Below are positions 1,219 through 58,218 of a DNA stretch of 64,000 nucleotides, piece by piece. The notes beneath the pieces were generated by a model. It was given only the letters and a program-made list of their open reading frames with translations. It searched no databases and was not told where the DNA came from. Each line of letters starts with the position of its first letter. Position 1 is the first letter of the stretch. The DNA comes from a virus (Duplodnaviria; Heunggongvirae; Uroviricota; Caudoviricetes). The translations under genes were made by a program, and so were the position numbers. The stretch lies in the IMG/VR virus record IMGVR_UViG_2843020057_000001, positions 74,516 to 138,515 of that record, one strand, 5' to 3'.

Positions 1219-1285
1219 AATTAAAACCTCGTTTAATAGGAAAACGCTTATGATAAAATAATAAGGCAGGCAAGTTTCAAGGACG

Positions 1286-1965
1286 GTGGCCGACGCGTAT
1301 TTCGGAGGTGGTTCAATGAACTTCACCATTAAGAAAGGGCTGTTGGCACATGAGCGCTTACCAAGCACTTATGCTAATGTTGGCCTTTGCGACCTTCGTG
1401 GTTGCATTGCTGACCTTTATTTTCTCATTTTGTTGAAAATAAAAGATCGTCCTGTTAACTTTGGCCAGTTGCGGACGATCTTTTATTGATTCAATGTAAC
1501 TAGGCCACCGTCTTTTTAACGGGCCTGCTTTTTGTGTATCTATATTATAGCATGAAAGAGGGAAATTGAGTAGTCAGTGAATACTCAGTGATGTGTTCAT
1601 GAGTCTTTCATGCTATAACCAGTCATTAAAATTTTTGTTTTAATGCGAGGGAAATAACCTAAAACAAAAATTTTAATGACAGGTAGATAAACAAGAAAAC
1701 AACTATCCCCTATGGTAGTTGTCAATAGTATCAACCACTGCTCATTCATGTTATAATATAGATACACGAAATGCAGGCCCGTTTCAAAGACGGTGACCTG
1801 GTTACTTAGAACTAATATCGTCCGTAACCGGCCAAAGTTAGTAGGACGGTTTTTTATTATGCACAGAATGTGAAAATAAAAGTCAGCAAAGCAATTATAA
1901 AAGTTGCAAAAGCCAGCATTAACATAAGTGCCTGGTAAGCGCTCATGTGCCGAAAGTCCTTTCAT
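1286..1965. repeat. foldback element: ~165-bp inverted repeats (1326-1492 vs 1798-1962, ~80% id) around a ~300-bp core of nested perfect palindromes
   Basis: Outer IR arm ggccaccgtc...gggcctgc (1503-1528) pairs with gcaggccc...gacggtgacc (1771-1796). Inner 17-bp IR tgtgtatctatattata/tataatatagatacaca. 21-bp IR gtcattaaaatttttgtttta/taaaacaaaaattttaatgac. Hairpin+T-run units gatcgtcc...ggacgatc (1445-1490) and cgtcc...ggacgg-ttttttatt (1818-1862). Confidence 0.6.
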
Positions 1966-8022: not shown

Positions 8023-9915
8023 CTACTTATATCTTCCCATTACAACGTCTTTAACTTCTTTAAGATAGTCATCAGTATATTCCGGCACCAGAAGCTGTCC
8101 GTCGATAGCATCAAGCATAACTTTCTCCTTATCTTTTAACTTCTTATAAACCGTATTATCAATAAAGCCCATATGAGCAACATCGCCCTTGGTCATTAAA
8201 TAATAATATCTTGTATACTGATTTGATGGTAAACCAAGGCGATTAATACGATCACGGGATTGTAACATGAAGGTCAGATTAAAATTGTATTCAAAGTAAA
8301 CTGCATCATGTACCGTTTGATGCAGCGATATAGACTCACCCAAAGTGTTAGGATTAGACACTAATACCTGTACATCACCGGTTCGAAAATTATCTATCAT
8401 TCCTTCGCGGTCTTGCTTAGGCGTTGCACCATATATCAAAGTTGTCTTAATTCCCATACTATTAAGAGTATCGGTAATCTTTTGCATAGTGCCAACAAAC
8501 ATTCCCCAGACAAGAACCTTCTTACCTTGACTGACTAGTTTATCAATTAGATCAATGCCCATTTCAAATTTAGGTGCTTCTATTTTTACCAAATCATACT
8601 TTTTATATGCTTCTCCACTACTCATATTTTCTTTTTCAATTGAGGTAGATTGTTTACTCCAAACACCTGAATCAGCGTCAATTAAGCCTAATTCTTTATA
8701 GTTAATATTGGTCGCTAATAATTCAGGATTTGTTGAAGCTTGTAATAACCTAATAAAGGTTGCTAATGCACCATTCTCGTTTTCATAAATTGCTTGTGCT
8801 AGTACCTCCTGATTCTTAGACGGAGCTACTTCTTTAATAATATCTGGATCAGGCTTAGGAACGTGTAAATCTCGTTTATTGGTACGCCAGAAAAACGGGG
8901 ATAGTTTTCTGTTCACATCTTCAGGATCAATATTATTTAAAGTGGTTAAATCCCAGGTAAAGAATGAGGAATATTCATCAGGATACATCAAGTGTAAGAA
9001 ATTATAGATATCCCTAAATCCATTTGGAATAGGGGTCCCAGTAAGCACGTATCGATAATGAGGCGCCTGACTAAGGCTAAGTGCTGCTCTAGCTCTTTGA
9101 CCACCAACACCCTTAACCCGGTGAACTTCATCAAAGACTAACATTGTTTTAGAATCCAGCAGGTCGTTAATAATATTTAACTTGCTTTGTAAAGACTCAT
9201 AATTAATTGTGATTACATCAGCTTGAACCCAATCATGTTTAATGGCTCCAGTATTATTATTGTATTTTTTATCTCGCATATTGAGATAATGAAGTTCTCG
9301 TTTAGGACCAAAGACTGCCTGAAATTCTGTACGCCAAGCAGCAAATGCGTTCAATGGTGAAATTACTAAAAGCTTATTTACCTCATTAACTTTGGGACTG
9401 GATAAATAAGCAAAGGTCCCATACATCATAGCAGTTTTTCCTGCGCCTGGTACTGAAAAATTAGCAGCCCGCTTCATAATTGTCATGAAGAAACTGGCTT
9501 TTTCTTGTTCTGGCTTAAGTGGTCGTGTTATTTCCTGACTAACAACTGATTTAAAGTTTTCAAACTCTTTATGCCAGCGAGGATCTCCGTCCTTGATTGT
9601 AAGCCCAGCCTGACTTTGCTCTTTAATATAGTATTGGCGCTGTTGAACAAACTGATTGAACTTATTACTAGTCTTCACTTCAGGCAAGCCCTTACGTTGT
9701 AAACGTCGGTTAAGCTTCTTTATTAGCTCTAATAATTGAACATATGTTAAGTCACTTTTAAAAGTTCGTTGCTCCGAATTTTCAAAATATGGCGCAAAGA
9801 TAGCTAATCCCCGCTGAGCTGTTTTACTTTCAAGAGTTTTAGCCTCATCATCTATGAGTTGAAACAAGCCATCATTATTTTTAATTATGATTGGACTATC
9901 TGATTTCATCACCAT
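8023..9915 (-). CDS. SNF2-family DEAD/DEAH helicase
   Basis: Walker A GAGKTAMM. DExH FDEVHRVKG. SNF2 motif III LTGTPIPNGFRDIYNFLHLM. C-terminal helicase domain. Start overlaps the stop of the upstream gene. Confidence 0.8.
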   Translation of the reverse strand: MVMKSDSPIIIKNNDGLFQLIDDEAKTLESKTAQRGLAIFAPYFENSEQRTFKSDLTYVQLLELIKKLNRRLQRKGLPEVKTSNKFNQFVQQRQYYIKEQSQAGLTIKDGDPRWHKEFENFKSVVSQEITRPLKPEQEKASFFMTIMKRAANFSVPGAGKTAMMYGTFAYLSSPKVNEVNKLLVISPLNAFAAWRTEFQAVFGPKRELHYLNMRDKKYNNNTGAIKHDWVQADVITINYESLQSKLNIINDLLDSKTMLVFDEVHRVKGVGGQRARAALSLSQAPHYRYVLTGTPIPNGFRDIYNFLHLMYPDEYSSFFTWDLTTLNNIDPEDVNRKLSPFFWRTNKRDLHVPKPDPDIIKEVAPSKNQEVLAQAIYENENGALATFIRLLQASTNPELLATNINYKELGLIDADSGVWSKQSTSIEKENMSSGEAYKKYDLVKIEAPKFEMGIDLIDKLVSQGKKVLVWGMFVGTMQKITDTLNSMGIKTTLIYGATPKQDREGMIDNFRTGDVQVLVSNPNTLGESISLHQTVHDAVYFEYNFNLTFMLQSRDRINRLGLPSNQYTRYYYLMTKGDVAHMGFIDNTVYKKLKDKEKVMLDAIDGQLLVPEYTDDYLKEVKDVVMGRYK

Positions 9916-11206
9916 ATTTGACGAACAACTCCTTACTTAGTTGGTTCAAGTCACGCATATATCTTTGTAACTCTTTTAACTGATCCTCAGTTACTTCGTT
10001 GTAACGTAAACTGCCAATTAACCCACCGTCTTCATTTAGGTCATGGTAGTATTTAACATTCTGCTTAATGTTGCGAATAAACTTATCAACAGATTCACTA
10101 TTACGAGCATTCCGCATATAGGTATCAAAAGTATCTCCTAAAGCTTCAACTGTCTCGTTTTCATCCGTTAAACTTTGCATCAAGTCTGAAGTATCATGTA
10201 TTTCATCATCTTGAAGCGAATCTGATAAATCATCAACCATGTCGGCAACGTCATCATTGAAGTCTTCATTATCTACACTATTTACAATATTTTTACTATA
10301 TTCACGAATATGAGTACGTGCTGTATTACCACTAACTCCGACATGAATTTGATAAAGAATAATCCCAAAATAAGAATTCATGGTTTCATTTTTACGAACT
10401 TGTGATTCTGGATCATCACCAAAGTTTTTGGACAACGATTTCCCCATTTCGTAGAAAAGTGACCAAGCTTTACTTTCCTTAATAATATTGAAATTATTTT
10501 CCGGAGCACCAATAAACTCCAAAAATTTTTTCATATATACAGCACCATCATAATATTTTTTAACTTCAGTGGGTCGCATATGTGAATCAGCCGCATAATC
10601 TGCTTGGGTCATAATTGGATCATCGCCACTGGTGGTCTGGTAGATATCAACAGCCAAATCAACTGGATCATAATCTTGTCGCTCTTCAACACCCATTTGA
10701 ATAGCTAATTCCAATTTTTTGATTTTAGCTCGCTCAGTAGTGTTGTCATATGAGAATGGCAAAACAACAGCTTCAAAATAAACCGTCTTACCAGTATCTT
10801 GATGAATATCGCGTAATGTTGTAAAGCGCCGATTACCATCTACAATTCGTCCATCATCTAATACATAGCCATACACTTGTTGGCCCGCTTCAGTAATAGA
10901 CTTCTTAGTTCTTTTCAAAGCAGTCGGATTATCCTGCTCAATCAACTTAGCTACAAAGTTATTGTATTGAGGATTGTCCTTTTCGTTTGCTGGCTGCAGT
11001 TGACCTTCATATTGTGAAATACCAGTTGCAATCCGGCCATTCTTATCATTGTAGTAAAGGTACTCTAATGGAATCTTGTAGACGTCTAGAGTCTCCGAGC
11101 TCACACCATCAACCTTAATTGGTAATTTCGGCTTAGCTCCTGTTTTCTCTAGTTTCCCTTCTTTAGCTAATTCAATCAATGATAACATTCTAGTCCAACT
11201 CCCCAT
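9896..11206 (-). CDS. ParB/Srx-like nuclease-domain protein
   Basis: N-terminal ParB-N pattern KIPLEYLYYNDKNGR and GxRR box IVDGNRRFTTL. Acidic C-terminal half. Start and stop overlap neighbours (translational coupling). Confidence 0.6.
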   Translation of the reverse strand: MGSWTRMLSLIELAKEGKLEKTGAKPKLPIKVDGVSSETLDVYKIPLEYLYYNDKNGRIATGISQYEGQLQPANEKDNPQYNNFVAKLIEQDNPTALKRTKKSITEAGQQVYGYVLDDGRIVDGNRRFTTLRDIHQDTGKTVYFEAVVLPFSYDNTTERAKIKKLELAIQMGVEERQDYDPVDLAVDIYQTTSGDDPIMTQADYAADSHMRPTEVKKYYDGAVYMKKFLEFIGAPENNFNIIKESKAWSLFYEMGKSLSKNFGDDPESQVRKNETMNSYFGIILYQIHVGVSGNTARTHIREYSKNIVNSVDNEDFNDDVADMVDDLSDSLQDDEIHDTSDLMQSLTDENETVEALGDTFDTYMRNARNSESVDKFIRNIKQNVKYYHDLNEDGGLIGSLRYNEVTEDQLKELQRYMRDLNQLSKELFVKYGDEIR

Positions 11207-14180
11207 TTTCTAATTTATTAATCAAGTCATGTACTTCTTGTTCACTCGTAGCCATACGATAGTAAACCCCTGATTCTCTCAAATGATCAAAATATTTCTG
11301 CTGAATAATACGGATTTCATCATCACCAAGTCGCATATTCTCTGCTTTAGTTTCAATTACAAGATATACTGGCTTATTGCCATGCTCGATCTTAAATATA
11401 AAATCTGGCGTAGTTGTTCCGTTATCAAAACGTGGAATCTTAATAGCCCTCTTAGGTAGTTTTCCAAATACACTAATCTTGGGGCCATATGATCGTTTCA
11501 ATATTTTCAGCTCTGGATCAGCACTGTCATATCGCAGTGGTGGCCGATCATACAGGTATTTCTCATCAGAAGACGAATCGGATTGGTAAACACCCAACAC
11601 ACTTGCTGGCACTGAATCAACAAATTCATGTTTCTTCGCATTATAAACTGAAGTAGACGCTGAGAAATCTAATGGCTCGTAGCTGTATGAAGTTTTAATT
11701 CTCTCATTAAATTGTTTATTAAAAGTATGAATCAAATTGCCCAATGTTTTTTCATTAATGTACTTCTTATTGTTTTTTAAACGCTTAATCGCCTTAATCA
11801 TCAGATTATTCAGTAAATTAACTGATAGGTCTGTTTGCTGGGCTAAAATCTTAAGAAACTTACCATATTTCATTGGTGGATAATCAACGCCATAATCACT
11901 CTGCGTTTCTTTAAGCGAGGCCGAACTATCATTAACGTCAACCTTTTGATGAATCATTTGAGGACGTTGTAAAACAAAGACCTTATTATCACTATCATTG
12001 AAAACATTGCGAGCAACTGTTTCGGCATCTTGATTAACTGATGGAGTAAATTTAATCATCCGACGTTTAGCTAATTGCAACCACAAGTTCTTTAATTGCT
12101 GCCAATTTTGCTTGCGTAGCTTAACATTTGTGCTGTCTTTTGAATTTTTATCTCGAACCTTATCCTTAGCAACTTTAGTTTCTTGGACTAATTCTGGATA
12201 AAGATGACACAACGCATCATAGCCGGTCATCATTTGACCATCTAATTCAACGTTTTCTTTAAATTTGTTAGAACGAGTAATCACATTATGGGCATCTAAA
12301 TCATCAAGTAGCTGGTCCTCATCAAACTTAGGATCAGTTTTTTGTTTAGCTTTAACAATCAGCTTGATCATGTCATCAGTTAATTCTTCTTGGTTCAGTT
12401 TTATCGGTGAATCATCATTAATTTTACCTACTAACTTTTGAGCAAAATCTCGTTCATCATAACCTATTAAGAAAGATAGACGACTCTGCCACTCATCCTG
12501 ATTCAAACGGTGACCAGTTTCATCAACTGGAAGCCGTAAACCACGACCAACTTCCTGAATCTTGTTGATTTCTGAGCCAGAAGTCCGCAACTTAGCAATC
12601 GTAAAGACATTTGGATTATCCCAACCTTCACGTAGCGTCCACTTAGAAAACAGAAAGCGACGAGTAAGCCAGTTACCGTCTTTATCCTTAAAGCTAAGCA
12701 ACTTTTCCTTGTTGTTTAAAATATCCTCAACTTCCGCCTGGATATCCGCATCTGAACTGTCACGATCCTTGCTGAAATAACTGGCATAAACGTTCTGGTG
12801 TTCCGACTGTAAACTCTTCAAGGTAGCCAGTAAAAAGGAATGATACTCTTTTTCTCGGTCATCAATTGCTAATTCATAGTGATCAATTAATGTCTTCAGC
12901 TTTTTAGTTAAAATTTCTTCGAAGTGCTGAGCAAGCCAACCTTTACTATTGTTTTCTGCACGAAAGCTGGAAATACTATCAATGAAGAATAAAGACAAGG
13001 TTTTTATCTTAGGTGCATTATCCCCCGAATTTGGACGCAAGAAGTTCTCCTCTTCCGCCTTAAAATGACAATCTAATGCTTGCGAAATAATCTCATCCTG
13101 ATAATTTTGAGCAAAAGTACCAGGAATCAGCTCCATATCTTTGGACAAAGCTAATCCATTTGATAATTCACGGTCACCGACATAGGTAATATTACCCTCA
13201 AAGCCAGTATCGATGTCCGCTAAATTTTCACCGACGTTCATTGAATAATCTTTACCATCTTTAGTCAAGACTAATTCTTTATTTCTATTTTTAAATTGCT
13301 TGACTTTGTACAAGTTATTAGCTTGTTCTTCCGGCATATCTGGGTAATAGATATCGATTCCCTTAACTAAACCTTGATTAAAGCTATCGACGGCATCCAA
13401 GTTGAACTGAGGTTCACCACGGTAATAATCAATCTTAGTAACCTTGTTTTTGCCACGCCCACTTGTTGTTACCGGGAAAGTAGCCCCAAAGCGGACAATT
13501 AACTGAGGCTTCATCTCTTCAATATCTTTATAGAATTTTTTGCCCCGTGGGAAACGCTGCGGTTCATCAATAATCACCACTGGCCGCGTGGCAGCAATAG
13601 CTTGAAGTGGTTCGGTTTCTCCACCCAAGAGTGTTTGATCAAAAATGTATGGTTTTTTCCTACGTGGCATCATATACATAGAATGGAGCATTCCTTGGTT
13701 AATCAGCAAAACTTCAATTTGGTTAGCATTCTGCCTAGTTGCTTCCACAAATTCAGAAAGCTGAGCTGGGAAGTTACGGCGTCCGGAGCGCGCACTAAAA
13801 TCACCCGCGTTAATAACGTTTAATTGCACTCGGGTATTTTCATAAAATTCACTAAAGTGCTGCTTAGCATAATCACTACTGATAAAACTGCGGGTACCTT
13901 CCTTAATACTTGGACTTGGCACCGCAATCACGAACTTGAATAAGCCATACTTTTGGTGAAGGTCATACATCATCCGGGTGTAAACATAAGTCTTCCCAGT
14001 CCCCGTTTCCATCTTAATGTCAATGTTAGCTTTATCGTTATAACGGTATCTAATCAATGGATTGGCATAGATGTAATTAGCATTTGGGTCATTGGACATG
14101 GTGTCCATACCAGGAAATGCTTTATCAATGGCAGCTAAGGCATCTGTTTGGTGTTGTAAAGTTTCTAGTTTAATCTTCAT
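11190..14180 (-). CDS. res: Type III restriction-modification Res subunit (helicase + C-terminal PD-(D/E)xK nuclease)
   Basis: Walker A METGTGKTY. Motif II VIIDEPQRF. C-terminal nuclease-like PDFIF...LVIETKAENMR. Immediately downstream of mod with a 4-nt gap. Confidence 0.75.
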   Translation of the reverse strand: MKIKLETLQHQTDALAAIDKAFPGMDTMSNDPNANYIYANPLIRYRYNDKANIDIKMETGTGKTYVYTRMMYDLHQKYGLFKFVIAVPSPSIKEGTRSFISSDYAKQHFSEFYENTRVQLNVINAGDFSARSGRRNFPAQLSEFVEATRQNANQIEVLLINQGMLHSMYMMPRRKKPYIFDQTLLGGETEPLQAIAATRPVVIIDEPQRFPRGKKFYKDIEEMKPQLIVRFGATFPVTTSGRGKNKVTKIDYYRGEPQFNLDAVDSFNQGLVKGIDIYYPDMPEEQANNLYKVKQFKNRNKELVLTKDGKDYSMNVGENLADIDTGFEGNITYVGDRELSNGLALSKDMELIPGTFAQNYQDEIISQALDCHFKAEEENFLRPNSGDNAPKIKTLSLFFIDSISSFRAENNSKGWLAQHFEEILTKKLKTLIDHYELAIDDREKEYHSFLLATLKSLQSEHQNVYASYFSKDRDSSDADIQAEVEDILNNKEKLLSFKDKDGNWLTRRFLFSKWTLREGWDNPNVFTIAKLRTSGSEINKIQEVGRGLRLPVDETGHRLNQDEWQSRLSFLIGYDERDFAQKLVGKINDDSPIKLNQEELTDDMIKLIVKAKQKTDPKFDEDQLLDDLDAHNVITRSNKFKENVELDGQMMTGYDALCHLYPELVQETKVAKDKVRDKNSKDSTNVKLRKQNWQQLKNLWLQLAKRRMIKFTPSVNQDAETVARNVFNDSDNKVFVLQRPQMIHQKVDVNDSSASLKETQSDYGVDYPPMKYGKFLKILAQQTDLSVNLLNNLMIKAIKRLKNNKKYINEKTLGNLIHTFNKQFNERIKTSYSYEPLDFSASTSVYNAKKHEFVDSVPASVLGVYQSDSSSDEKYLYDRPPLRYDSADPELKILKRSYGPKISVFGKLPKRAIKIPRFDNGTTTPDFIFKIEHGNKPVYLVIETKAENMRLGDDEIRIIQQKYFDHLRESGVYYRMATSEQEVHDLINKLENGELD

Positions 14181-14183
14181 GGT

Positions 14184-16274
14184 TTAGTACCTCTTGATTA
14201 AAGTTACTTTACTGTCTAGCTGTTTTAAGCCATTTTCCAGTTCACGCAGTTCTGCCACGTTAAAGGAGTAGCCAAAAATAACCACACTTTGGATTTCTAA
14301 TTGACGAGTACCAAGTTGGTTGAGTAATTCTTTAGTTTGGCTTGCTCCCCAACCTTCATTAACCAAGTAAAGTCGATTATCTTCAACTTTATGCGCGGTG
14401 TAGTTATCAAACTTAACTTCTTCAACATCAGCATCAAATGGATAACCATCCTTAGCTAACCATGTAGTCAGAATAGTTTCTTCACCTGTGGCATCCCCAT
14501 CTATTTTTAGGCTTTCACTAGAAAAGCCATCGACCATATTGGTAAACAAGTCAGTGTTGTTTGGATTAAAGTCTTCAATATCTTCCAAGGTTTGCTTAAC
14601 TGGTTTGACAACTCGATAGTGCTTAAAGCTGCCGTCAAAGTCTTCAGGCAAAGTTAGTTCATTATCTTCACGAATCTTTTTAGCAGCACGACGAATACGT
14701 TCACGAGAGATTTCGTCGATGGATTTAAAACCAGCATCATATGCTGCTTTGCCACCTGTAGTAGGTATCTTTTGGCCCCTTTTATCTAAAATGGTTTTTC
14801 CCGTATCTTTATCAACTTTGTAAGTCTTTTCTGGTAACTGAACCATAATAAACTTACGATGTCCACCATCCTCAGCATTAAGTTGCATTACTGCATCTGC
14901 TGTAGTACCTGAGCCTGCAAAAAAATCAAAAACCGTAATATTTTTACTGCTAAACAACGTTAAAAATAATTTGATTAAATCAGTACTCTTTGGTGAAGAA
15001 AATACCTCACGGTTATCAAAAAGTAATTTGAGTTTTTGTTTGGCCTTTGTGGTAGTTAGATCTAGATGATAATCAGTAGGCTTATTGTTAATAATTGCTT
15101 GATACTTTAAATTGGTTACGATACTTTTTAATCTTTTCGTTGTACTAAAATTTTTTTCAAAAATTTTAGTATCTGTAAACTGTAACGAATTAGTTTCAAA
15201 AAGTTCCATAAATTTATCTATAGAGTACGTATTTTCTACAAATTTATTATTTCTTTCTGAAATATATCGAATATATCCTTCACCAATTAATTCATTATCA
15301 ATATCGAGTATGTCCTTCTCTTTTCTAAAATGAATTTTCTGTTTTTCGGGCTGATAGTAAACGCTGTAATGTTTTTTAGAACTGTAGTTAGTAACTACAT
15401 CATTAAATTTATTTTCCCCTACCAGAACGCGTTTTCCGCTATTATGAACGAAATTACCATTCTCATCTTTAATCATTTCTGTAGATCTTTTCGGTATGTT
15501 TTCAATAAATTTAGCTTCATTAATTTTTTTAGCGTATAAGATGGCAAACTCACTGCTAACGGAAATAAACTTAGAGTTTTTTCTGCCTTTAGGATTATTT
15601 TCGACTGATAAATTTCCAATAAAATTATCCTCACCAAACACTTCATCCATTAATAATTTTAAATTGGCTTGTTCATTATCATCTATAGAGACAAACATCA
15701 CGCCTTCATCAGTTAGTAGCCTTTTTGCCAAAGTTAACCTTGGATACATAAATGTCATCCATGCAGAATGACTAGACCTTCCTTGAATACTTTTTAGTCG
15801 TGATAGTTGATCATCGTTAAGTTCAAACATTTCTTTTAACTTATCATCAGAGTATTCAAAATTATCTGGATAAACAAAATCATCTTTACCAGTGTTATAT
15901 GGAGGATCAATATAGATCACATCAACCTTATTTGTATATGCAGTTTGTAAATGTCGTAATACTTCGAGATTATCACCAGTAAAGAACAGGTTATTACTGT
16001 CCTTCCCTTCACCCTTATTTTGTTTCTCATCAGGGACAATCACCGTTGTCGGCATCTCACCTGCTTGACGCCGCGCATAATCTTTACCAATGAAATCTAG
16101 CTGATAACCTTCACTAAGTTCATTGCTGTTCTTTTCTTCTAGTTGCTCCTTGAACTTTTCCAAATCGAAGAAGCCATTTTTATTAAAGAACTCTGGCAAT
16201 TTATCTTTCAATTCATTTAAAAAGGCTGTGTTCGGCTGTACGGATTCATTATATTTTTCAGCATCTGTCTTCAT
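14184..16274 (-). CDS. mod: Type III R-M Mod subunit, N6-adenine DNA methyltransferase (beta class)
   Basis: DPPY motif VIYIDPPYNTG precedes the FxGxG motif FDFFAGSGTTADA (circularly permuted order typical of Type III Mod). Confidence 0.85.
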   Translation of the reverse strand: MKTDAEKYNESVQPNTAFLNELKDKLPEFFNKNGFFDLEKFKEQLEEKNSNELSEGYQLDFIGKDYARRQAGEMPTTVIVPDEKQNKGEGKDSNNLFFTGDNLEVLRHLQTAYTNKVDVIYIDPPYNTGKDDFVYPDNFEYSDDKLKEMFELNDDQLSRLKSIQGRSSHSAWMTFMYPRLTLAKRLLTDEGVMFVSIDDNEQANLKLLMDEVFGEDNFIGNLSVENNPKGRKNSKFISVSSEFAILYAKKINEAKFIENIPKRSTEMIKDENGNFVHNSGKRVLVGENKFNDVVTNYSSKKHYSVYYQPEKQKIHFRKEKDILDIDNELIGEGYIRYISERNNKFVENTYSIDKFMELFETNSLQFTDTKIFEKNFSTTKRLKSIVTNLKYQAIINNKPTDYHLDLTTTKAKQKLKLLFDNREVFSSPKSTDLIKLFLTLFSSKNITVFDFFAGSGTTADAVMQLNAEDGGHRKFIMVQLPEKTYKVDKDTGKTILDKRGQKIPTTGGKAAYDAGFKSIDEISRERIRRAAKKIREDNELTLPEDFDGSFKHYRVVKPVKQTLEDIEDFNPNNTDLFTNMVDGFSSESLKIDGDATGEETILTTWLAKDGYPFDADVEEVKFDNYTAHKVEDNRLYLVNEGWGASQTKELLNQLGTRQLEIQSVVIFGYSFNVAELRELENGLKQLDSKVTLIKRY

Positions 16275-26004: not shown

Positions 26005-26064
26005 TGAGGTAGATGGGAATCGAACCCATATCCTAGCATGATCTACCAATTGAACTACTACCTC
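26005..26064 (-). ncRNA. 60-nt tRNA-like element lacking a canonical anticodon arm (pseudo/armless tRNA)
   Basis: Perfect 7-bp acceptor GAGGTAG/CTACCTC+A. D-arm GTTC-AATTGGTA-GATC. T-arm ATGGG-TTCGATT-CCCAT. Only 10 nt (CATGCTAGGA) where the anticodon arm should be. Confidence 0.3.
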
Positions 26065-26303
26065 CGTTGATTTAGTATACATTCATCAACGTCCCAAAGA
26101 TCTTATCTCGGCTTCAATTTATCGGAAGTGGAACCTTAGACGCTACGTTTCCTATTTATAGACGGATACACGTCTTCTTCGTTATCATCCACTCTGCCGT
26201 ACACCTTCATTGTGTATGATTGAGCTACTCTAGCACATAATGTGACGATCAATCACGTGCCGGAGGCTGGACTCGAACCAACAACCTGATGATATTCCGA
26301 ATA

Positions 26304-26678
26304 TGGAGTAGACGGGAGTCGAACCCGTGTCCAACCAAATCAGTTTCCAAATACATTTTAGACTTATTAGGATTATGTACTTAACTCTTAAGCTTAGACA
26401 GTCACACAATCATTTTCCAAAGGCTACCTAAACCGATCTAGTTTTATTACTTCATCACAACCAAACTAGCAAACGGCGGACAAAGACCAGAGGGGTGAAA
26501 TATGATAGCTAATATCCTTATCTGGTATCAAAATATTAACCAAGTGCCTATAAGCTAGGCAGCTAAAGCTGTAACTCTATGGTTATTTGCTTTTATATTT
26601 AAATGAAAGTATTTCGGCGTTATCTTCCGTAAGTCGTATTTAGGGCTTTATTTGACTGTCGAATCCATAAACTACCCC
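26304..26678 (-). ncRNA. ssrA: tmRNA (ssrA), tag reading frame ending ...ALAA-stop
   Basis: 5' end GGGGTAGTTTATGGATTCGACAG matches the tmRNA consensus GGGG...GGAUUCGAC. Acceptor GGGGTAG/CTACTCC with G3:U70 and A73 (Ala identity). 3' T-arm ACGGG-TTCGACT-CCCGT. Internal frame GCA AAT AAC CAT AGA GTT ACA GCT TTA GCT GCC TAG (ANNHRVTALAA*). Confidence 0.8.
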
Positions 26679-26740
26679 AGAATAGAGCTTTAAATCATAG
26701 CTCCAAATAATAATTCAAATCGACTTCTTAATGAAGTCTA

Positions 26741-26812
26741 TAACACGTACAGGATTCGAACCCATATCTCCACATTACCATAGTGGTGCTTCCCCATTTA
26801 AACTAACGTGTT
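26741..26812 (-). tRNA. putative tRNA-Thr(GGU), unusual A1-U72
   Basis: Manual fold. Acceptor AACACGT/ACGTGTT+A. D-arm GTTT/AAGC. Anticodon stem CCACT/TGTGG (one mismatch), loop ATGGTAA. T-arm ATGGG-TTCGAAT-CCTGT with wobbles. Confidence 0.45.
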
Positions 26813-27169
26813 ACTTATATATCAAAATATTTCTTGTGGTGGAACCCCTAACAGCTTTTGCCTTATTCCACATTTGTTCCTACTAGCTTCATAGGATGGG
26901 CATAGTCCTTATCCCTGCTAAGGGGCGCTGTCGTTACTCGCTGAATGTTTTGATATGTTCTTGTTAAGGGAGACCCATTTCGAGACCTTAACATCGCTAA
27001 CTTAGAAATCTCCTTTGTTCCTAATGCTAAAGACCGCGGGTGTTTCGGAACTCAGCGAAATTTCACTATTAACTGGTGATCAACCCCACTCACGGATTCC
27101 GCACATGCCTACGCTCCGTCAGCGAATATTGTACCTGTCTTTTATAAAATCCTGATTTTAAAAACAGGA

Positions 27170-27242
27170 TGGACCTTGCAGGACTCGAACCTACGACCGA
27201 GCGGTTATGAGCCGCCTGCTCTACCAACTGAGCTAAAGGTCC
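27170..27242 (-). tRNA. tRNA-Ile2(CAU, lysidine type) / Met-CAU
   Basis: rc reads GGACCTTTAGCTCAGTTGGTAGAGCAGGCGGCTCATAACCGCTCGGTCGTAGGTTCGAGTCCTGCAAGGTCCA. Cloverleaf is canonical. Sequence closely resembles Firmicutes tRNA-Ile(LAU). Confidence 0.85.
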
Positions 27243-27514
27243 AAAATGATAGACCATAAACCGCAAACTTGTCTATCCGTGAGCGTTTAATCCAATCTCA
27301 TATTTGCAACTATGTTTTCGGCAACTAAGCTCACAAGTATAAATGATTACTGCTGACACCAATGATCATTCATATCTGCTGACTCGATAGATGAATATCG
27401 TTACGACTGTGTCAGGTCGCCGTGTTACACCTAACAGGCGGAGGTTGTTTTAGTTAATTAATGTGTGCTTTTTAATTTTCACTGGCACGCAGTAGCACAT
27501 TTAAGGAACTGCAA

Positions 27515-27586
27515 AGCGGTTAACGAGACTCGAACTCGCGACAACAGCTTGGAAGGCTGTGGTTTTACCAGTTAAACTATAACCGC
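27515..27586 (-). tRNA. tRNA-Trp(CCA)
   Basis: rc GCGGTTATAGTTTAACTGGTAAAACCACAGCCTTCCAAGCTGTTGTCGCGAGTTCGAGTCTCGTTAACCGCT. Anticodon stem ACAGC/GCTGT, loop CTTCCAA. Confidence 0.85.
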
Positions 27587-27781
27587 ATTAGAGAGGTGAT
27601 TTATTTATATTCGCAGCTACACCCCACTGCTATCACATGCCAACAATACTAGGCATCCTACCCTACCCTCGTGTTGACTTCGAGACACCAGTTTTACAGT
27701 CTATGTTTCCAAGAACACACTGGATTTACTCTCCGCTCCGTTAAGTGAAATACAATTCTAGCGACGGCACACTAGAACCAA

Positions 27782-27855
27782 CTGCGAATATCGGATTTGA
27801 ACCGATGACACAAGGTTTAACAGACCTCTGCTCTAACCAACTGAGCTAATTCGCA
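27782..27855 (-). tRNA. tRNA-Asn(GUU)
   Basis: rc TGCGAATTAGCTCAGTTGGTTAGAGCAGAGGTCTGTTAAACCTTGTGTCATCGGTTCAAATCCGATATTCGCAG. U1-A72 and G73 as in bacterial tRNA-Asn. Anticodon loop CTGTTAA. Confidence 0.85.
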
Positions 27856-28360
27856 AAATTTAGAGAACACGATTAATCACTTCATATTCTCAAAGTAACA
27901 AGGATAGTTGATTAGTCCTATCGCTGAGGCGCACATTTAAGTACGTTGCTCTCCTTTACATACCAACCACTACATTCAAAGCGTTGACGCTTGCTACTCT
28001 AACTGCCCAGGACAGGATTCGAACCTGCTACCTCAGGGTCAATGTTTTTCAACACGCGCGTGTATCCCTGCGCTCTCGCCAAATATTTCGAGCTACCTAG
28101 ACGTAATAATGTCCACCCAGAAACGTTAGATAGTGAACTAATAAGTTAAGAGCTTGTTGACTGTGCTAAGTATCAGTCTGATTACTCTTAGAGCTTATAT
28201 CTTTTTATGGACATTGACTTAGCAATTCTGTCCGCGATTAATCACTACTATTTCTAGTAGATACCTTCGCATTGCGAAGATGTGGCCTATAACTAGGCAA
28301 ATCATTTTCAGACAGTTCAGTCGATCTTAAGCTGACCATTCTATAAAGAACTATCTGAAA

Positions 28361-28415
28361 TAGTCCTGTTGGGAATCGAACCCAATTAATCTTCCTAGTA
28401 CCATCAGACAGGACT
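28361..28415 (-). ncRNA. 55-nt armless tRNA-like element
   Basis: Perfect acceptor AGTCCTG/CAGGACT+A and T-arm TTGGG-TTCGATT-CCCAA. Only 25 nt between acceptor and T-arm. Shares a CTAGGA core with the 26005-26064 element. Confidence 0.25.
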
Positions 28416-29186
28416 CCAAACATAATACATGTATTTTTTCGTTACACCATCTTTAACGTGCGTGTTGAAAATTGTTACTAAAAGTCGCCGACACGGGACT
28501 ATCTTTCCGAAACCACAATTTAGGGGAGTGGCAATCCCGACAATAAATGTCGATTAAGGAGTCAAAGCTCCACGTTAATCTGATTAATCTTTAACAAGAC
28601 AGCCTCTTTCTTATCTGTCATACCTATTTCTTTTGCATTCTCTGAGCACGTGCTCTCTTGAACACCGAGGTGGGTAATTATGCTGTATTTCGAAGCCCTA
28701 CGTGAGCCGTAATCAGATTATATAAATAAGTTTATTATCTTATCGCTGTTACAACAGCAATTTAAAGATGGAAAACTTTATAAAAGAAGCATTTTACTAA
28801 CAGAAGGCATAAACTGTCATTCTTCCCACTAGCGGTCAGAACTTTTTCTAGACTGCTTTTTTATTTTTCAAATACTCCCGCCAATAACTAGTATGACTTG
28901 CAATCTTGTATTTGTATTATTCAGGGTGTAGATTACCAGAGCACCCGAACCTGCAACCCGAGAATTAAACTCAGCATTAACTTAGGCAATATCTGCATCG
29001 CAGGTAGTCGCACACGCAACCATAGCAATAAGAAGCGTGGCATCAATCACATTACGAGCATTAGAAACTCCTCCAGTTGTGAGTAGGATACCTCGTATAA
29101 ATCACATTACTGCCATTTATACTCAAGCGCTTCAACCGACACACCTGTTGCCGGTTTCCCTATTATACATATCCATATAACAGAAA

Positions 29187-29269
29187 CACCTAGAGAGGGA
29201 TTTGAACCCCCGAACCCGAAGGAACGGTTTTGGAGACCGTCGCGTTTGACCAGACTTCGCTATCTAGGT
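29187..29269 (-). tRNA. 83-nt type-II-like tRNA with anticodon loop CTCCAAA (CCA) and 12-nt variable region
   Basis: Acceptor ACCTAGA/TCTAGGT+G (7 bp perfect). Anticodon stem ACGGT/ACCGT perfect. Variable region TCCTTCGGGTTC with a UUCG-like mini-hairpin. T-arm GGGGG-TTCAAAT-CCCTC. Confidence 0.4.
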
Positions 29270-29424
29270 ATTAATAACGTGCCATGCCAGCGTAAACACG
29301 TTATTAGATCGAATTGAAAAATGTAAAGGTAAAGGTATATGGAAAACATAACCTATTGAACATACGTTAGGTGTTTTTACATTCCAAACGTTTTCCGTCA
29401 TTTGAAACAACCTATTGCTAGGAA

Positions 29425-29493
29425 TTTCGGCAATGGGAATCGAACCACATATCTACACCGCACAATGTTGCTCTACCATTGAGCTATGCCGAA
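29425..29493 (-). ncRNA. tRNA-like element with irregular anticodon arm (possible pseudo-tRNA)
   Basis: Acceptor TTCGGCA/TGCCGAA+A perfect. Canonical D-arm GCTC-AATGGTA-GAGC. T-arm with one bulge. Only 18 nt for anticodon arm plus variable loop. Confidence 0.35.
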
Positions 29494-55005: not shown

Positions 55006-55530
55006 TTATAGATTTTCTTCTTTGAATTGACTAATGATTTCATCGGCATGATTGTTAAGCATTTCTTGATAGTCGTATTCGGTCATGCTTTCACAATTAC
55101 CGCAACCGTTAATAAAGATGTAAGGATCAAGCCAATTGTGAATATCGCCAAAGAACACGGCTCGCGCTACTTCTTGCCGTGATGAAAACATGGTGTCAAA
55201 GAAATCATCATCAAAATCGTATACATCCTCACAGCCGGTTGCTTCACGATCATCTAGGGCGTTGTATACATCCTCGATAGTGTCATAGTCCTCGAGTGCT
55301 TCGGCTAATTCATTCAGAGCGTATAAGTTGTCGTATTCACCAATCTTGAAAGGTGCTTCATAATCACTGATAAACCATTCATCGTGGTAACCTTGCTTGC
55401 TATCACCGCCCAGGTCTAACTTGTCCAAAATATCCTTGTTCACATCATCAACTGGCAAAGTTGTCCATTGTCCAGTAAGTTCACCATCGTTGTACTTCGC
55501 TAAGTTTGAAACAAATACTTTAATTTCCAT
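55006..55530 (-). CDS. ardA: ArdA antirestriction protein (DNA mimic, anti-Type I R-M)
   Basis: N-terminus VFVSNLAKYNDGELTGQWTTLPVDD aligns with Tn916 ArdA VYIANLGKYNEGELVGAWFTFPID. ~170 aa and highly acidic. Confidence 0.75.
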   Translation of the reverse strand: MEIKVFVSNLAKYNDGELTGQWTTLPVDDVNKDILDKLDLGGDSKQGYHDEWFISDYEAPFKIGEYDNLYALNELAEALEDYDTIEDVYNALDDREATGCEDVYDFDDDFFDTMFSSRQEVARAVFFGDIHNWLDPYIFINGCGNCESMTEYDYQEMLNNHADEIISQFKEENL

Positions 55531-55603
55531 GATATTTACCCCTTTTTATAATTATATTTATTTTCATTCTTTATTTACTTGTGATTAATAGTGTAAGATT
55601 ACA

Positions 55604-55807
55604 TTAGTTTAGCAAGTTCGTCAATAGTGCCCGTAAAAGTGGGAGGGTCACTGCAATAACAATAACTGCAATGAATGCAGCTAAAATACTGTACTTCTTA
55701 AACTTGATTAGTTTTTTGCTATCCTGTTCTAATTGCTTAATGTATTCTGGATCAACCAACTTGTAATCCTGTTCTGCGTATTTTTGTAGTTCTTTTTGTG
55801 ACATCAT
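55604..55807 (-). CDS. small membrane protein, first gene downstream of the promoter array
   Basis: C-terminal TM helix. Confidence 0.3.
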   Translation of the reverse strand: MMSQKELQKYAEQDYKLVDPEYIKQLEQDSKKLIKFKKYSILAAFIAVIVIAVTLPLLRALLTNLLN

Positions 55808-56343
55808 AATATCAAAACCCTTCTAATTTATTTCAGCGGTTGTTATTAATCGCTTTATATAGAGTCTTATCGTGTTGATAAGGCTCTCTAAAAACAATTA
55901 ATAGTGTCTTTTTCACTTTCATAGGCTTAAACCAAGAATATTAGCAAGTCCCTACTGGTAGTATCACGGTGCCTTTATCTACTATTGATTAGGCGGTTGA
56001 CGTGGAATCACCTACCCCTACCGTACCGGGTTATTTACCAACTTTTGATATTGCGGAGTTGTTCTCAGTTCTACTGAAAGATTGAACCGCGGTTATTAAG
56101 TTTTCAAAGGTCAACGCCCTGATTTTTCGCGTGTCTGTCACCCGCGCGGGTTCCCGTGACGAATTTTAACCTAATGATAGTCTGATATATGGTGTTTCCC
56201 TTGCATTGAACCCTATCCGATATGATGGTCTAGTTATGGTTCGCGCCCCCACCTTTTTCGTGGGCTATCAGTCCCGTGGTAAGTTTTTCGACTTTCAAGG
56301 TCAGTTTTTTGAATTGGTAGCTTTCCAATGTAATCTGAACATT

Positions 56344-56373
56344 TTTATATAGACTTAAGTCTATATAAATCAA
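56344..56373 (-). promoter_or_regulatory. promoter P1 (minus strand, TTGATT-18-TATAAA) with 22-bp perfect palindrome in spacer
   Basis: rc reads ggTTGATTtatatagacttaagtctaTATAAAaa. Confidence 0.5.
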
Positions 56374-56428
56374 CCTTTTGTTTGTTAATCGCTCAAGGTT
56401 TGCGATTGCTTGTTTCTTTACGGCTTTT

Positions 56429-56457
56429 ATTATATAGACTTAAGTCTATATTGTCAA
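56429..56457 (-). promoter_or_regulatory. promoter P2 (minus strand, perfect consensus TTGACA-17-TATAAT, palindromic operator in spacer)
   Basis: rc reads cTTGACAatatagacttaagtctaTATAATaaaagcc. Spacer is exactly 17 nt. Confidence 0.7.
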
Positions 56458-56552
56458 GTCTTAATTTTAGAATTTTTTAGTGGTTGACCTCGGCGACAAG
56501 TAATATAGCTGAGTGAACTCACTTTCAATTCATTTATTAAGTTTGTGCCTTT

Positions 56553-56581
56553 ATTATATAGCCTTAAGTCTATATTGTCAA
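56553..56581 (-). promoter_or_regulatory. promoter P3 (TTGACA-17-TATAAT)
   Basis: Same unit as P2, with one mismatch in the palindrome (tatagccttaagtctata). Confidence 0.7.
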
Positions 56582-56663
56582 GAAGTAATTTTGATTATTT
56601 TTGAAAACCTATGCTAGTTCGATGACTGCTATTTTTGTTTTCTTAATCAACTTTACGGCCTTT

Positions 56664-56692
56664 ATTATATAGCCTTAAGTCTATATTGTCAA
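56664..56692 (-). promoter_or_regulatory. promoter P4 (TTGACA-17-TATAAT)
   Basis: Same unit. Copies are spaced ~111-125 bp. Confidence 0.7.
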
Positions 56693-56705
56693 GAAGTAAT
56701 TTTAG

Positions 56706-56740
56706 AATAAAAAAAACAATAGTAAATGAATACTATTGTT
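56706..56740 (-). terminator. rho-independent terminator of the small ORF 56733..56960
   Basis: Minus strand aacaatagta-ttcatt-tactattgtt followed by ttttttttatt. Confidence 0.55.
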
Positions 56741-56960
56741 GTAAGTCTTTTAAGCGTTGTTCAATATCAGAATGTAATTCTTTTAAGTCGTCAATGTATT
56801 GTAAACGATTTTCGTTAATTGCCTGCGATAGTTTAGTAGACTTTTTAAGATTAACATTAATAAAACCGCGCGCCTGACCCTTGCGGTCCCAGTATGTTTT
56901 TTTCAGTGGATTTTCAGCACGATATTTTTTTGTCGCTTCCTTTTGTGCCTCGCTTACCAT
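56733..56960 (-). CDS. small basic protein, candidate DNA-binding regulator of the palindromic operators
   Basis: 75 aa and K/R-rich. Preceded at 56975-57000 by a partial copy of the repeat unit, with TATAAT at 56994-56999 and a half palindrome. Confidence 0.4.
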   Translation of the reverse strand: MVSEAQKEATKKYRAENPLKKTYWDRKGQARGFINVNLKKSTKLSQAINENRLQYIDDLKELHSDIEQRLKDLQQ

Positions 56961-57040
56961 TTACTCACCCCCTTTTTGTATAGCCTTAAGACTATTATAA
57001 CATACTTACAACCCTAACAGAATATAAAAATAATACCCCT

Positions 57041-57715
57041 TTTTATTTTTATATAAGGAAAGAAAAAAATAATAATGGTATTGATATATATGTATATATG
57101 TATGTATGTATATGTATATGTATGATTGAGTAAGTGAGTGATATATATGTATATGTATATATGTATGTATATGTATGTATGGTTATGTATGTATATATGG
57201 TTGTATATATGGTTGTATATATGTATGTATATATGTATGTATATATGTATATATGTATGTATGTATATGTATGTATATATGTATGTATGGTTGATTGAGT
57301 GAGTGATTGAGTGAATAAGTGAGTTAGTAAGTGAGTGAATAAGTGAGTGAGTGTATGTATGATAACGCTTTCATATGTTATTGTATGATGGATCAAATGA
57401 ATATGTATATGTATTGAGTGAGTTAGTAAGTGAGTTGGCTGGTAGGGTAAACGGTTGTTTATTATATAAGGGGCGTGGATTGAGTTATTAAGTGAGTGAG
57501 TAAGTGATATATATTATTGTGTTTGTTTGATGTGTTTGGTTTATTTGGTCGGTGGTATGGTGTGAGTGTAGTGTAGTGATTAATTAGTGAGTTTGGTTGG
57601 TAGGGTTATTGTGTTAGGTTGGTTGGGAGTGGGTTGGGTAAATATATAGTTTTTTATTATGGTTGGGGGTGTGTTTATTATTATGTTTGTTTGGTGTGAT
57701 AGCTGATTACTATAT
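57041..57715. repeat. ~675-bp strand-asymmetric low-complexity region: top strand essentially C-free, built from (TATG/TGTA)n and (GTGAGTRA)n microsatellite-like repeats and G/T-rich GGTTGG tracts
   Basis: Direct count gives ~11 C residues in ~675 nt. Repeats tatgtatgtatatgtatatg..., gagtgattgagtgaataagtgagt..., ggttggtagggtt...ggttgggagtgggttgggt. Confidence 0.85.
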
Positions 57716-58218
57716 ATCAAATTCGATATATTTAAGTTAGTGAAACGGATATAATAGCCCTAATCATTTTTATATTTATCTTTTTAAAATTACAATTGTA
57801 AACCCCTATAAATAAAATTACCCCTTATCATTAGATAAGGGCTTTATTTTTCTACTGTTAAAAATTAATGTAATCGTTTTCATTAAATAACAGTTATTAT
57901 TTTATATTTTTCTGGCAAATGAACGGGGGTTATTTTACTCAAAACGCCTTAATTTTTAGGGGAATTTTTAGACTAGTTGCTTCACTCACACACCACAAAA
58001 ATATTCCCGTACCTTCCCACTCCACCTCTATCCTCTTCACTCCATATCACCCTATATTAATACCCAAAACACACCCTTTTTACACCCTATTTTCATCACC
58101 CTTAATTCTTGAAAATAATTTTCATAAATTTTCATAATTACCCCTTCTTCTCATATTTCTCCATACAAAAAACAGTCCAAACATACTAACTTAATAGTAC
58201 ATTCAGACCAAAGCTCCC

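Follow-up and report, generated by a model that had tools for sequence, protein, structure and literature searches.

A tandem promoter bank with palindromic operators and a predicted Aca13-family repressor upstream of ardA on a plasmid-like element of Limosilactobacillus reuteri

The helix-turn-helix (HTH) regulators Aca1-Aca12 are small autorepressors acting on inverted repeats in very strong anti-defense promoters, which gives an early burst followed by shut-off (PMC12282945). Aca13, the only anti-CRISPR-associated (Aca) regulator without an HTH, binds inverted repeats between the -35 and -10 elements of anti-CRISPR (acr) promoters and represses them, as established by electrophoretic mobility shift assays, reporters and alanine mutants (PMC12282945). 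On plasmid p576 of Bacillus pumilus, an autoregulated repressor, Reg576, holds four establishment-gene promoters, including that of one anti-restriction gene; these are transiently de-repressed after DNA entry into a new cell (PMC6294495). Here we analyzed a locus in a 64,000-nt stretch of DNA (the window; positions 74,516 to 138,515 of IMG/VR record IMGVR_UViG_2843020057_000001) from an element that looks like a Limosilactobacillus reuteri plasmid. At this locus a bank of four tandem promoters with palindromic operators lies between a small basic open reading frame (ORF) and an operon containing the anti-restriction gene ardA. We propose, with a probability of roughly 0.8, that the locus is a repressor-gated burst switch for the anti-defense/establishment operon of the plasmid, controlled by an autoregulated repressor of the Aca13 family.

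Promoter bank, operators and the small predicted repressor gene

The bank occupies positions 56344-56692 on the minus strand, after the terminator of the small ORF. Its promoters and operators, like the matched variation and the homology described below, come from the sequence and its comparison with related loci.

56692-56664, minus strand: promoter P4, TTGACA-17-TATAAT, perfect consensus; operator at 56668-56685 in the spacer and first -10 bases
56581-56553, minus strand: promoter P3, TTGACA-17-TATAAT, perfect consensus; operator at 56557-56574
56457-56429, minus strand: promoter P2, TTGACA-17-TATAAT, perfect consensus; perfect operator at 56433-56450
56373-56344, minus strand: promoter P1, TTGATT-18-TATAAA, weaker; perfect operator at 56348-56365; unit conserved in relatives
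56348-56365 and 56433-56450: perfect palindrome TATAGACTTAAGTCTATA, the bank sites of P1 and P2
56557-56574 and 56668-56685: palindrome with one arm mismatch, TATAGCCTTAAGTCTATA, the bank sites of P3 and P4
56979-56996, no strand: putative autoregulatory operator O-R, AATAGTCTTAAGGCTATA, with two mismatches to the palindrome
56994-57002, minus strand: extended -10 element TGTTATAAT of the small gene's own promoter, read from the sequence
56733-56960, minus strand: predicted 75-aa Aca13-family repressor gene, with Shine-Dalgarno sequence GGGGGTGAG at 56964-56975
56709-56742, minus strand: intrinsic terminator of the repressor transcript, a 10-bp stem followed by U8, with the stop codon inside the stem

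A preliminary description of this DNA had read P2-P4 as exact consensus promoters, P1 as TTGATT-18-TATAAA and all four as direct repeats ~111-125 bp apart, each with a perfect palindrome in its spacer. The four promoters were found as described; the start-to-start spacings measured 85, 124 and 111 nt, and although a palindrome was present in every spacer, only two of the four were perfect. P2, P3 and P4 were the sole promoters in the window, on either strand, to match the consensus at 12/12 positions, and they fell within 240 nt on one strand. From base composition 0.15 such promoters were expected, and 300 shuffles yielded two at most. The 18-bp inverted repeat common to the four units, TATAG(A/C)CTTAAGTCTATA, takes up the greater part of the spacer and two bases at the start of the -10 element. 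The fifth copy, previously taken for a half-site, turned out to be a near-complete imperfect palindrome placed on a TGnTATAAT extended -10 (57002-56994). This site, O-R, extends from the 3' end of the extended -10 across the probable transcription start of the repressor gene to a point just upstream of the Shine-Dalgarno sequence. When the window was searched for the palindrome elsewhere, as had been proposed, no copies with <=3 mismatches were found beyond the five sites (10 matches with both strands counted, against 0.19 expected). A search that left the center of the palindrome free returned the same five sites and nothing else credible. Since the window holds no further operator, the regulon appears to be local.

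The inter-promoter segments (85-125 nt; 56458-56663 and the related loci) fall into distinct types of unit, ...AAAAGCCGTAAAGTTGATT... and ...GTGAGTTCAC... among them, that are conserved from plasmid to plasmid and have small hairpins inside, which argues that the bank is an ordered array of old date and did not arise by recent duplications. The P1 operator, as the last one and downstream of all the strong promoters, could also work as a roadblock.

The terminator of the small ORF, which coincides with inverted repeat I7 and has an RNA fold z of -4.29, parts its transcript from the bank, so that the predicted repressor gene forms its own transcription unit upstream of the promoters. The encoded protein is indeed small and basic, with a computed isoelectric point (pI) of 9.6 overall and 10.0 in its N-terminal half. 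Pfam assigned no domain to it; a sub-threshold match to the RLL domain (E 0.0055, 17 bits against a cutoff of 24.6 bits) was treated as noise. A TLP-IPT repeat protein returned from PDB by single-sequence phmmer was likewise set aside as compositional, with individual stretches at E ~90. The AlphaFold2 model (predicted local distance difference test score, pLDDT, 96) contains four helices, which form a basic helical hairpin (residues 4-16 and 18-34), a short helix (43-50) and a long C-terminal helix (52-74). It has no HTH and no N-terminal strand, and no structural resemblance was detected in PDB or BFVD. LexA- or CI-type regulators combine an HTH or winged-helix domain with an S24 peptidase; a 75-aa protein with no Pfam domain and no HTH in its model does not belong to that type. 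We therefore rejected LexA- or CI-type control, in agreement with the earlier statement that the operator is not LexA- or CI-like. The all-helical model likewise differs from a ribbon-helix-helix repressor such as Reg576.

We found 146 relatives of the small protein in L. reuteri genomes and gut metagenomes, and over the entire protein universe the family forms 63 clusters at 50% identity. A profile built from 50 members (A2) matched residues 90-127 of PDB 8ye6_B with an E-value of 0.029 (hmmsearch). This chain, named 'A32', is AcrIIA32, the C-terminal domain of which is Aca13 (PMC12282945). By hhalign the family aligned to a 58-aa protein of Streptococcus thermophilus phage P5641 at 96.7% (E 4.5e-10), over the full length save for a 16-aa insertion, and to an Aca13-like protein of Javan617 at 93%; phrog_2277 was matched at E 2e-7. 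The insertion, which forms helix 3, is carried by the L. reuteri proteins and sets them apart from the stand-alone Aca13-like proteins of Streptococcus phages. As in the Aca13 family, the window protein is a small helical protein without a canonical HTH, and the inverted repeat stands between the -35 and -10 elements of its putative targets P1-P4; here a dyad lies on its own -10 as well. The layout recurs in the Javan617 prophage promoter, TTGACT-ATTATATGGTACATGTAC-TATAAT, the N18 spacer of which holds TATGGTACATGTACTATA in the same register as in the window: an 18-bp dyad with TATA-like ends reaching into the -10 element.

Binding to a dyad in the spacer and repression have been demonstrated for the homologue Aca13, in which K92, W99, R107 and S111 are needed for repression (PMC12282945). 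W99 aligns to position 13 of the window family, which is always aromatic (Y/W/F13). Positions 6, 21 and 25, to which K92, R107 and S111 align, are not conserved and are among the most class-variable columns, as would be expected if those residues read bases. An activating, MerR-like role of the small protein, with which the predicted spacer binding would agree, seems hardly probable at all. MerR-type activators need over-long spacers of 19-20 bp; because the bank combines perfect hexamers with optimal 17-bp spacers, no activation is needed. Moreover, the homologue represses, and the site at the small gene's own promoter overlaps the -10 element and the transcription start.

The neighbors of the small ORF in the window are ArdA (PF07275) and small ORFs without a Pfam or PHROG match, and none was recognized as an Acr in these general libraries. 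Two distant family members (L035 and L037) lie at prophage ends after the lysin gene, a typical acr position. Another stands directly upstream of a 1489-aa ResIII/Eco57I-type enzyme (L038:3001-6234), the position of a restriction-system controller protein rather than of an anti-defense locus. Judged by these positions, the family appears to serve mobile elements as a general regulator of timing.

Matched variation of operators and small proteins in related loci

We collected ~35 related loci (designated L001 onward) from PLSDB, from ENA, Logan and NCBI assemblies, from JGI metagenomes and from IMG/VR. Seven L. reuteri plasmids matched the locus DNA at 78-85% identity; they measure 52-133 kb, belong to rep_cluster_2483 and are typed as non-mobilizable. 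All seven encode the small ORF. In the six with an intact downstream region (L001-L005, L008) the order is small ORF, bank, ~0.5 kb of non-coding DNA and a 67-aa gene, which is followed by ardA in four of them; in pLRI01 (L009) an IS3 insertion element replaces everything beyond the first promoter. A 28-nt stretch of the leader tail (described below) retrieved 10 metagenome loci and six IMG/VR loci. No match was obtained by blastn of the locus against a phage collection or by an exact 28-mer scan of the GTDB species-representative genomes, and nothing relevant to the L. reuteri locus was found in the literature. A bank with 1-5 consensus promoters was present in all the collected loci, and nearly all had a TGnTATAAT extended -10 at the equivalent position.

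The operators follow the formula TATAnn-N6/7-nnTATA, with these arms and centers:

TATAGA/TATAGC-CTTAAG: the window, L009, L031, L043
TATAGC-GTTCAC: L003, L017-19
TATAGG-N6: L020-22, L041
TATAAG/TATAAA: L004, L010-15, L027-33
TATAAC-CACACA (N6): L002, L005, L008, L045
TATAAC-ATACCC: L034
TATAAC-N7: L001, L025, L026, L032, L042

Dyad symmetry was kept across plasmids, both arms always changing complementarily, and within a plasmid the arms were identical at all bank sites. Where a comparison was feasible, the site at the small gene's own promoter shared the bank arms, less closely in L003 and L016. Each arm type was paired with one or two N-terminal sequence classes of the small protein, and 7-bp centers occurred only alongside proteins with a 3-aa insertion before the last helix. 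From this symmetry, the agreement within plasmids and the tracking of arm classes and of the insertion, we conclude that the dyad is probably a protein operator read as two 6-bp half-sites. A restriction-site artefact was rejected, since CTTAAG is the center of two classes only.

The same promoter unit in plasmids of different classes was 72% identical just downstream of the -10 element against 47% in the spacer, and different units within a plasmid were 46% identical in their flanks against 68% in their spacers. In contrast to their surroundings, spacers are thus homogenized inside a plasmid and diversified from one plasmid to the next, which argues that the matching of operator and repressor is more than simple linkage drift. 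It is very unlikely that the palindromes are operators of another factor, a host or plasmid protein, and that the 75-aa ORF is an unrelated passenger. Adjacency alone could yield an apparent co-variation, and the small protein has neither a recognized Pfam DNA-binding domain nor a fold match in PDB or BFVD. However, a homologue of the ORF product has been shown to bind sites of just this kind, a matching dyad lies on the ORF's own -10 in every class, and the N7 center tracks an insertion in the small protein itself; nor can a host protein explain at least six arm types in one species.

We considered it highly improbable that the dyads act as hairpins in RNA or single-stranded DNA (ssDNA), for example as processing sites, attenuators or Frpo-like elements. 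Dyad symmetry would be needed equally by a hairpin, all dyads except the first are transcribed from upstream promoters, and the leading regions of conjugative plasmids do use ssDNA promoters. With six A/T-rich base pairs and a loop of 6-7 nt, however, such a hairpin would be very weak, and the dyads keep a fixed register with the -35/-10 hexamers of canonical double-stranded promoters. In the TATAGG class the center varies freely within one plasmid (CACAAG, TGTGAG, CTTGAG), which fits two half-sites read by a dimer and not a structured loop. A Frpo-type leading-region promoter, in which a long imperfect hairpin forms in ssDNA, was rejected, the bank promoters being canonical duplex -35/-10 elements.

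Another alternative is that the five-site array is mainly a DNA-level element coated by the protein (centromere-like, or acting in incompatibility or exclusion), with transcription control secondary. The 4-6 regularly spaced sites extend over ~650 bp near the ParA and ParM/Alp7A partition genes, and the specificity classes resemble incompatibility groups, two of which co-reside in one genome. Even so, this appears very improbable, since every site falls precisely within a perfect consensus promoter that faces the ArdA operon and the prophage Aca13 relatives have single sites at single promoters. The partition genes, moreover, are >3 kb away, and a small gene directly after that for ParM/Alp7A could encode its adaptor. 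A secondary role as a centromere or incompatibility array is possible.

The co-resident copies are L041 and L042 (contigs 000010 and 000005 of IMG/VR UViG 2937135192), which come from one source genome and carry the TATAGG and TATAAC-N7 classes, respectively; this fits specificity classes that permit co-residence. At L046:1-400 we noted a bank variant with TACAAT -10 boxes and spacers outside the TATAnn-N6-nnTATA formula, its repressor gene lying off the contig. It may represent a further specificity class.

In the switch that we propose, the all-helical, non-HTH small protein would bind the 18-bp dyad TATAG(A/C)-CTTAAG-(T/G)CTATA, probably as a dimer held together through its conserved C-terminal helix. 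Since the dyad fills the spacer and the first -10 bases of P1-P4, the bound repressor would exclude RNA polymerase. At the repressor gene itself, the weaker dyad copy lies across the extended -10 and the start of transcription, which points to negative autoregulation, and as this dyad is imperfect, autorepression is probably weaker. We infer the order of events as follows. On entry of the plasmid into a repressor-free cell the tandem promoters would fire together and send a strong pulse of transcription through a structured leader of ~530-850 nt into orf67, ardA and ~25 small co-directional genes; as the repressor accumulates, the bank would be shut off. The preliminary description had already suggested that the palindromes are operators, that the adjacent ORF is an autoregulated repressor and that the switch gates strong early promoters of the ArdA island. 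All three suggestions gain support from the homology to Aca13 and from the matched operator variation, in which the arms at the ORF's own promoter vary with the bank arms.

Several points weigh against this interpretation. The transcription starts and the activity of the promoters in L. reuteri are assumed from their consensus. The homology to Aca13 is remote, at ~35-38% identity over ~53 residues in addition to the 16-aa insertion, and the published model of DNA contacts by Aca13 is an AlphaFold3 prediction backed by mutants, not a solved complex (PMC12282945). The repressor gene adjoins the operators, so linkage accounts for part of the co-variation. Protein classes B and C share TATAAG-type arms and the class-D sites (L016) are imperfect, with arms TATAAA/GTTATA and AATAAC/GTTATA; the code between operator and protein is therefore not strictly one-to-one. 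Finally, a burst on entry needs a route of transfer, and the annotated relatives are typed as non-mobilizable and show no relaxase or type IV secretion system.

Leader RNA, cargo and possible significance

Between the bank and orf67 lies a leader of ~530 nt on the minus strand (55859-56328) that contains two exchangeable cassettes richer in G+C than their flanks. Its parts and the first genes that follow are:

56110-56306, minus strand: leader cassette M1, type 'a', 197 nt, more G+C-rich than its flanks and swapped for unrelated cassettes in relatives
56093-56109, minus strand: conserved linker CTTTGAAAACTTAATAA between M1 and M2, from an alignment of 13 leaders
55907-56092, minus strand: leader cassette M2, type 'a', 186 nt, with an H-type pseudoknot inside
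56039-56090: M2 pseudoknot, supported by covariation (stem A 56087-56090/56053-56056; stem B 56058-56061/56039-56042)
55859-55906, minus strand: invariant leader tail with stem-loop GAGAGCCTTATC...GATAAGACTCTAT, just before the orf67 ribosome-binding site
55604-55807, minus strand: orf67, first gene of the operon; its product (67 aa) has a hydrophobic segment at the C terminus and is conserved in all relatives
55006-55530, minus strand: ArdA anti-restriction gene, 174 aa (Pfam PF07275, E 3.1e-18), annotated as ArdA in related plasmids

In an alignment of 10 distinct M2 sequences of the window type (A3), 46 pairs were defined and 99.8% of the cells were paired; five pairs showed compensatory changes, which covered both pseudoknot stems. 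From invariant G-U pairs the structure can be assigned to the sense (mRNA) strand. In a sister type of M1, which is not that of the window, compensatory changes were seen at 11/39 pairs. The minimum free energy z-scores of the leader were weak (-1.8 sense, -1.1 antisense), and the case for its structure thus rests on covariation and not on energy. Unrelated cassette types, at least four for M1 and at least three for M2, occur among relatives in mixed combinations, independently of operator class. The notion that the cassettes are tandem copies of one RNA was dropped, since the types are not detectably related by blastn. No Rfam family for the leader or the bank was found, either in a gathering-threshold scan of the window or in E-value scans of 55500-57600 and seven related loci; microRNA matches in the 55500-57600 scan fell on a TATG repeat and were considered spurious. 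Candidate functions of the leader are processive antitermination, stabilization of the long early transcript and action as an RNA decoy.

On the minus strand no convincing terminator was found from 55.8 kb to ~47.3 kb, and possibly 43.6 kb, so that the bank-driven unit may span 9-13 kb. It would contain ardA, ~25 small ORFs for which Pfam gave no match, toxins of the Doc/Fic and MazF types and possibly two integrases. The window also encodes ParA, an Alp7A/ParM-like actin and phage-like replication genes (Sak4-like, DnaB-like, RecD2, a clamp-like protein and RNA ligase). IMG/VR classifies the plasmid family as viral, and six of its contigs carry the locus.

Some further features of the window were noted. 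A transfer-messenger RNA (26301-26678, tag ANNHRVTALAA) and six to eight tRNA genes (26005-29953, minus strand) adjoin the phage-like replication genes for RNA ligase, RecD2, DnaB-like and Sak4-like proteins, on an otherwise plasmid-like element. A type III restriction-modification pair (mod 14184-16274, res 11190-14180) and an SNF2-family helicase (8023-9915), all on the minus strand within 8023-16274, share the element with the ArdA island. At 1244-1420 (plus strand) Rfam reported a match to the Listeria small RNA rli28 (48.1 bits against a gathering threshold of 45, E 0.007). Between the partition genes and the repressor gene, a long non-coding stretch contains a ~600-nt tract virtually free of C on the plus strand (57085-57700), with 4-nt TATG/TGAG and 12-nt repeats and a GC skew of up to +1.0. 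A bidirectional terminator-like hairpin (57822-57841) follows in that stretch, and then a ~200-nt tract virtually free of G (57975-58170).

In the related plasmid pLr03 the locus comes after repA, parA, parM and ~2.3 kb of non-coding DNA, and downstream of it lie ~30 small genes in the same orientation, together with toxin-antitoxin systems and an integrase. No relaxase or type IV secretion genes were found in the full pLr03 annotation. The preliminary description had likened the locus to the zygotic-induction circuits of conjugative plasmids, a setting that is hypothetical, since the annotated related plasmids lack a relaxase or type IV secretion system; the window itself was scanned in part. 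These L. reuteri plasmids are widespread and keep a leading-region-like ArdA island under a predicted entry-burst circuit but show no transfer genes, which makes their route of transfer a question of interest.

We also considered whether the operator/repressor classes are plasmid 'immunity groups' and the leader cassettes a new class of cis-acting or decoy RNA, a tentative proposal that we regard as rather unlikely. If it were true, a resident repressor would silence the anti-defense burst of an incoming plasmid of the same class and leave the newcomer exposed to host restriction. The resulting selection would be diversifying and favor new specificities, all 4-6 operators being replaced in concert. 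The leader cassettes might act in processive antitermination or as RNA-based counter-defense for the ~9-13-kb establishment operon. Functional work on Aca13 so far amounts to a single paper; the at least eight natural matched pairs found here, among them 6- versus 7-bp centers that track a 3-aa insertion, come close to a ready-made test of DNA reading by a non-HTH helical fold. Aca-type control would also be extended from phage anti-CRISPR loci to a plasmid anti-restriction/establishment island, and perfect consensus promoters with orthogonal small repressors are possible expression parts for lactobacilli.

Comparison with known systems

The closest described regulator is Aca13, the C-terminal domain of AcrIIA32 in Streptococcus prophages. 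Both proteins are homologous, small and helical without an HTH, and in both systems an 18-bp inverted repeat with TATA-like ends lies between -35 and -10 and reaches into the -10 element. Aca13 represses counter-defense genes of a mobile element, as is predicted for the window protein. The window regulator differs in being stand-alone, separately transcribed, putatively autoregulated and upstream of its target, not within or fused to an acr gene, and in its 16-aa helix 3. Its target is a tandem bank of 3-5 consensus promoters in place of a single promoter, and its cargo consists of ArdA and ~25 small genes on a plasmid, among which no known anti-CRISPR gene was identified. In addition, many matched operator/protein specificities coexist in L. 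reuteri. The HTH-type regulators Aca1-Aca12 resemble the window protein as small autorepressors acting on inverted repeats in strong anti-defense promoters; they differ in fold, their genes usually lie downstream within the operon that they regulate, and their target is one promoter only.

The early region of phage T7 has tandem promoters for the host RNA polymerase, A1-A3, before gene 0.3, which encodes the DNA-mimic anti-restriction protein Ocr and is expressed early after entry. It shares with the window a series of strong tandem host-polymerase promoters, three in number, that drive an anti-restriction protein; T7, however, is not known to have a repressor or operator there and uses another form of shut-off, and there is no known sequence relationship. 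Global plasmid repressors acting on repeated strong promoters are known from the CUP repeats of IncN/IncW plasmids with ArdK/ArdR and from the kil-kor regulon of IncP plasmids with KorA, KorB and KorC. These likewise govern strong repeated promoters of leading or establishment regions, anti-restriction genes included; in contrast to the window they belong to Gram-negative conjugative plasmids, their repressor folds and operators are unrelated, and their promoters precede separate operons.

The Reg576 circuit is on paper the same as that proposed here, and at the level of sequence architecture the window has its arrangement of a putatively autoregulated repressor set over several establishment and anti-restriction promoters. 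Reg576, however, has a ribbon-helix-helix fold and occupies dual TTATCCC heptamers in the form of two cooperative dimers; its four promoters stand before different genes, dispersed and not in tandem, and p576 is conjugative (PMC6294495). The principle of the switch is therefore not new, being already known from the Aca repressors and Reg576. What is new is the combination of a tandem bank, a separate upstream repressor gene, plasmid ArdA cargo, the insertion in the protein and the coexistence of many specificities, at least eight of them matched between operator and repressor, together with a modular leader of ~530 nt that shows covariation and belongs to no Rfam family.

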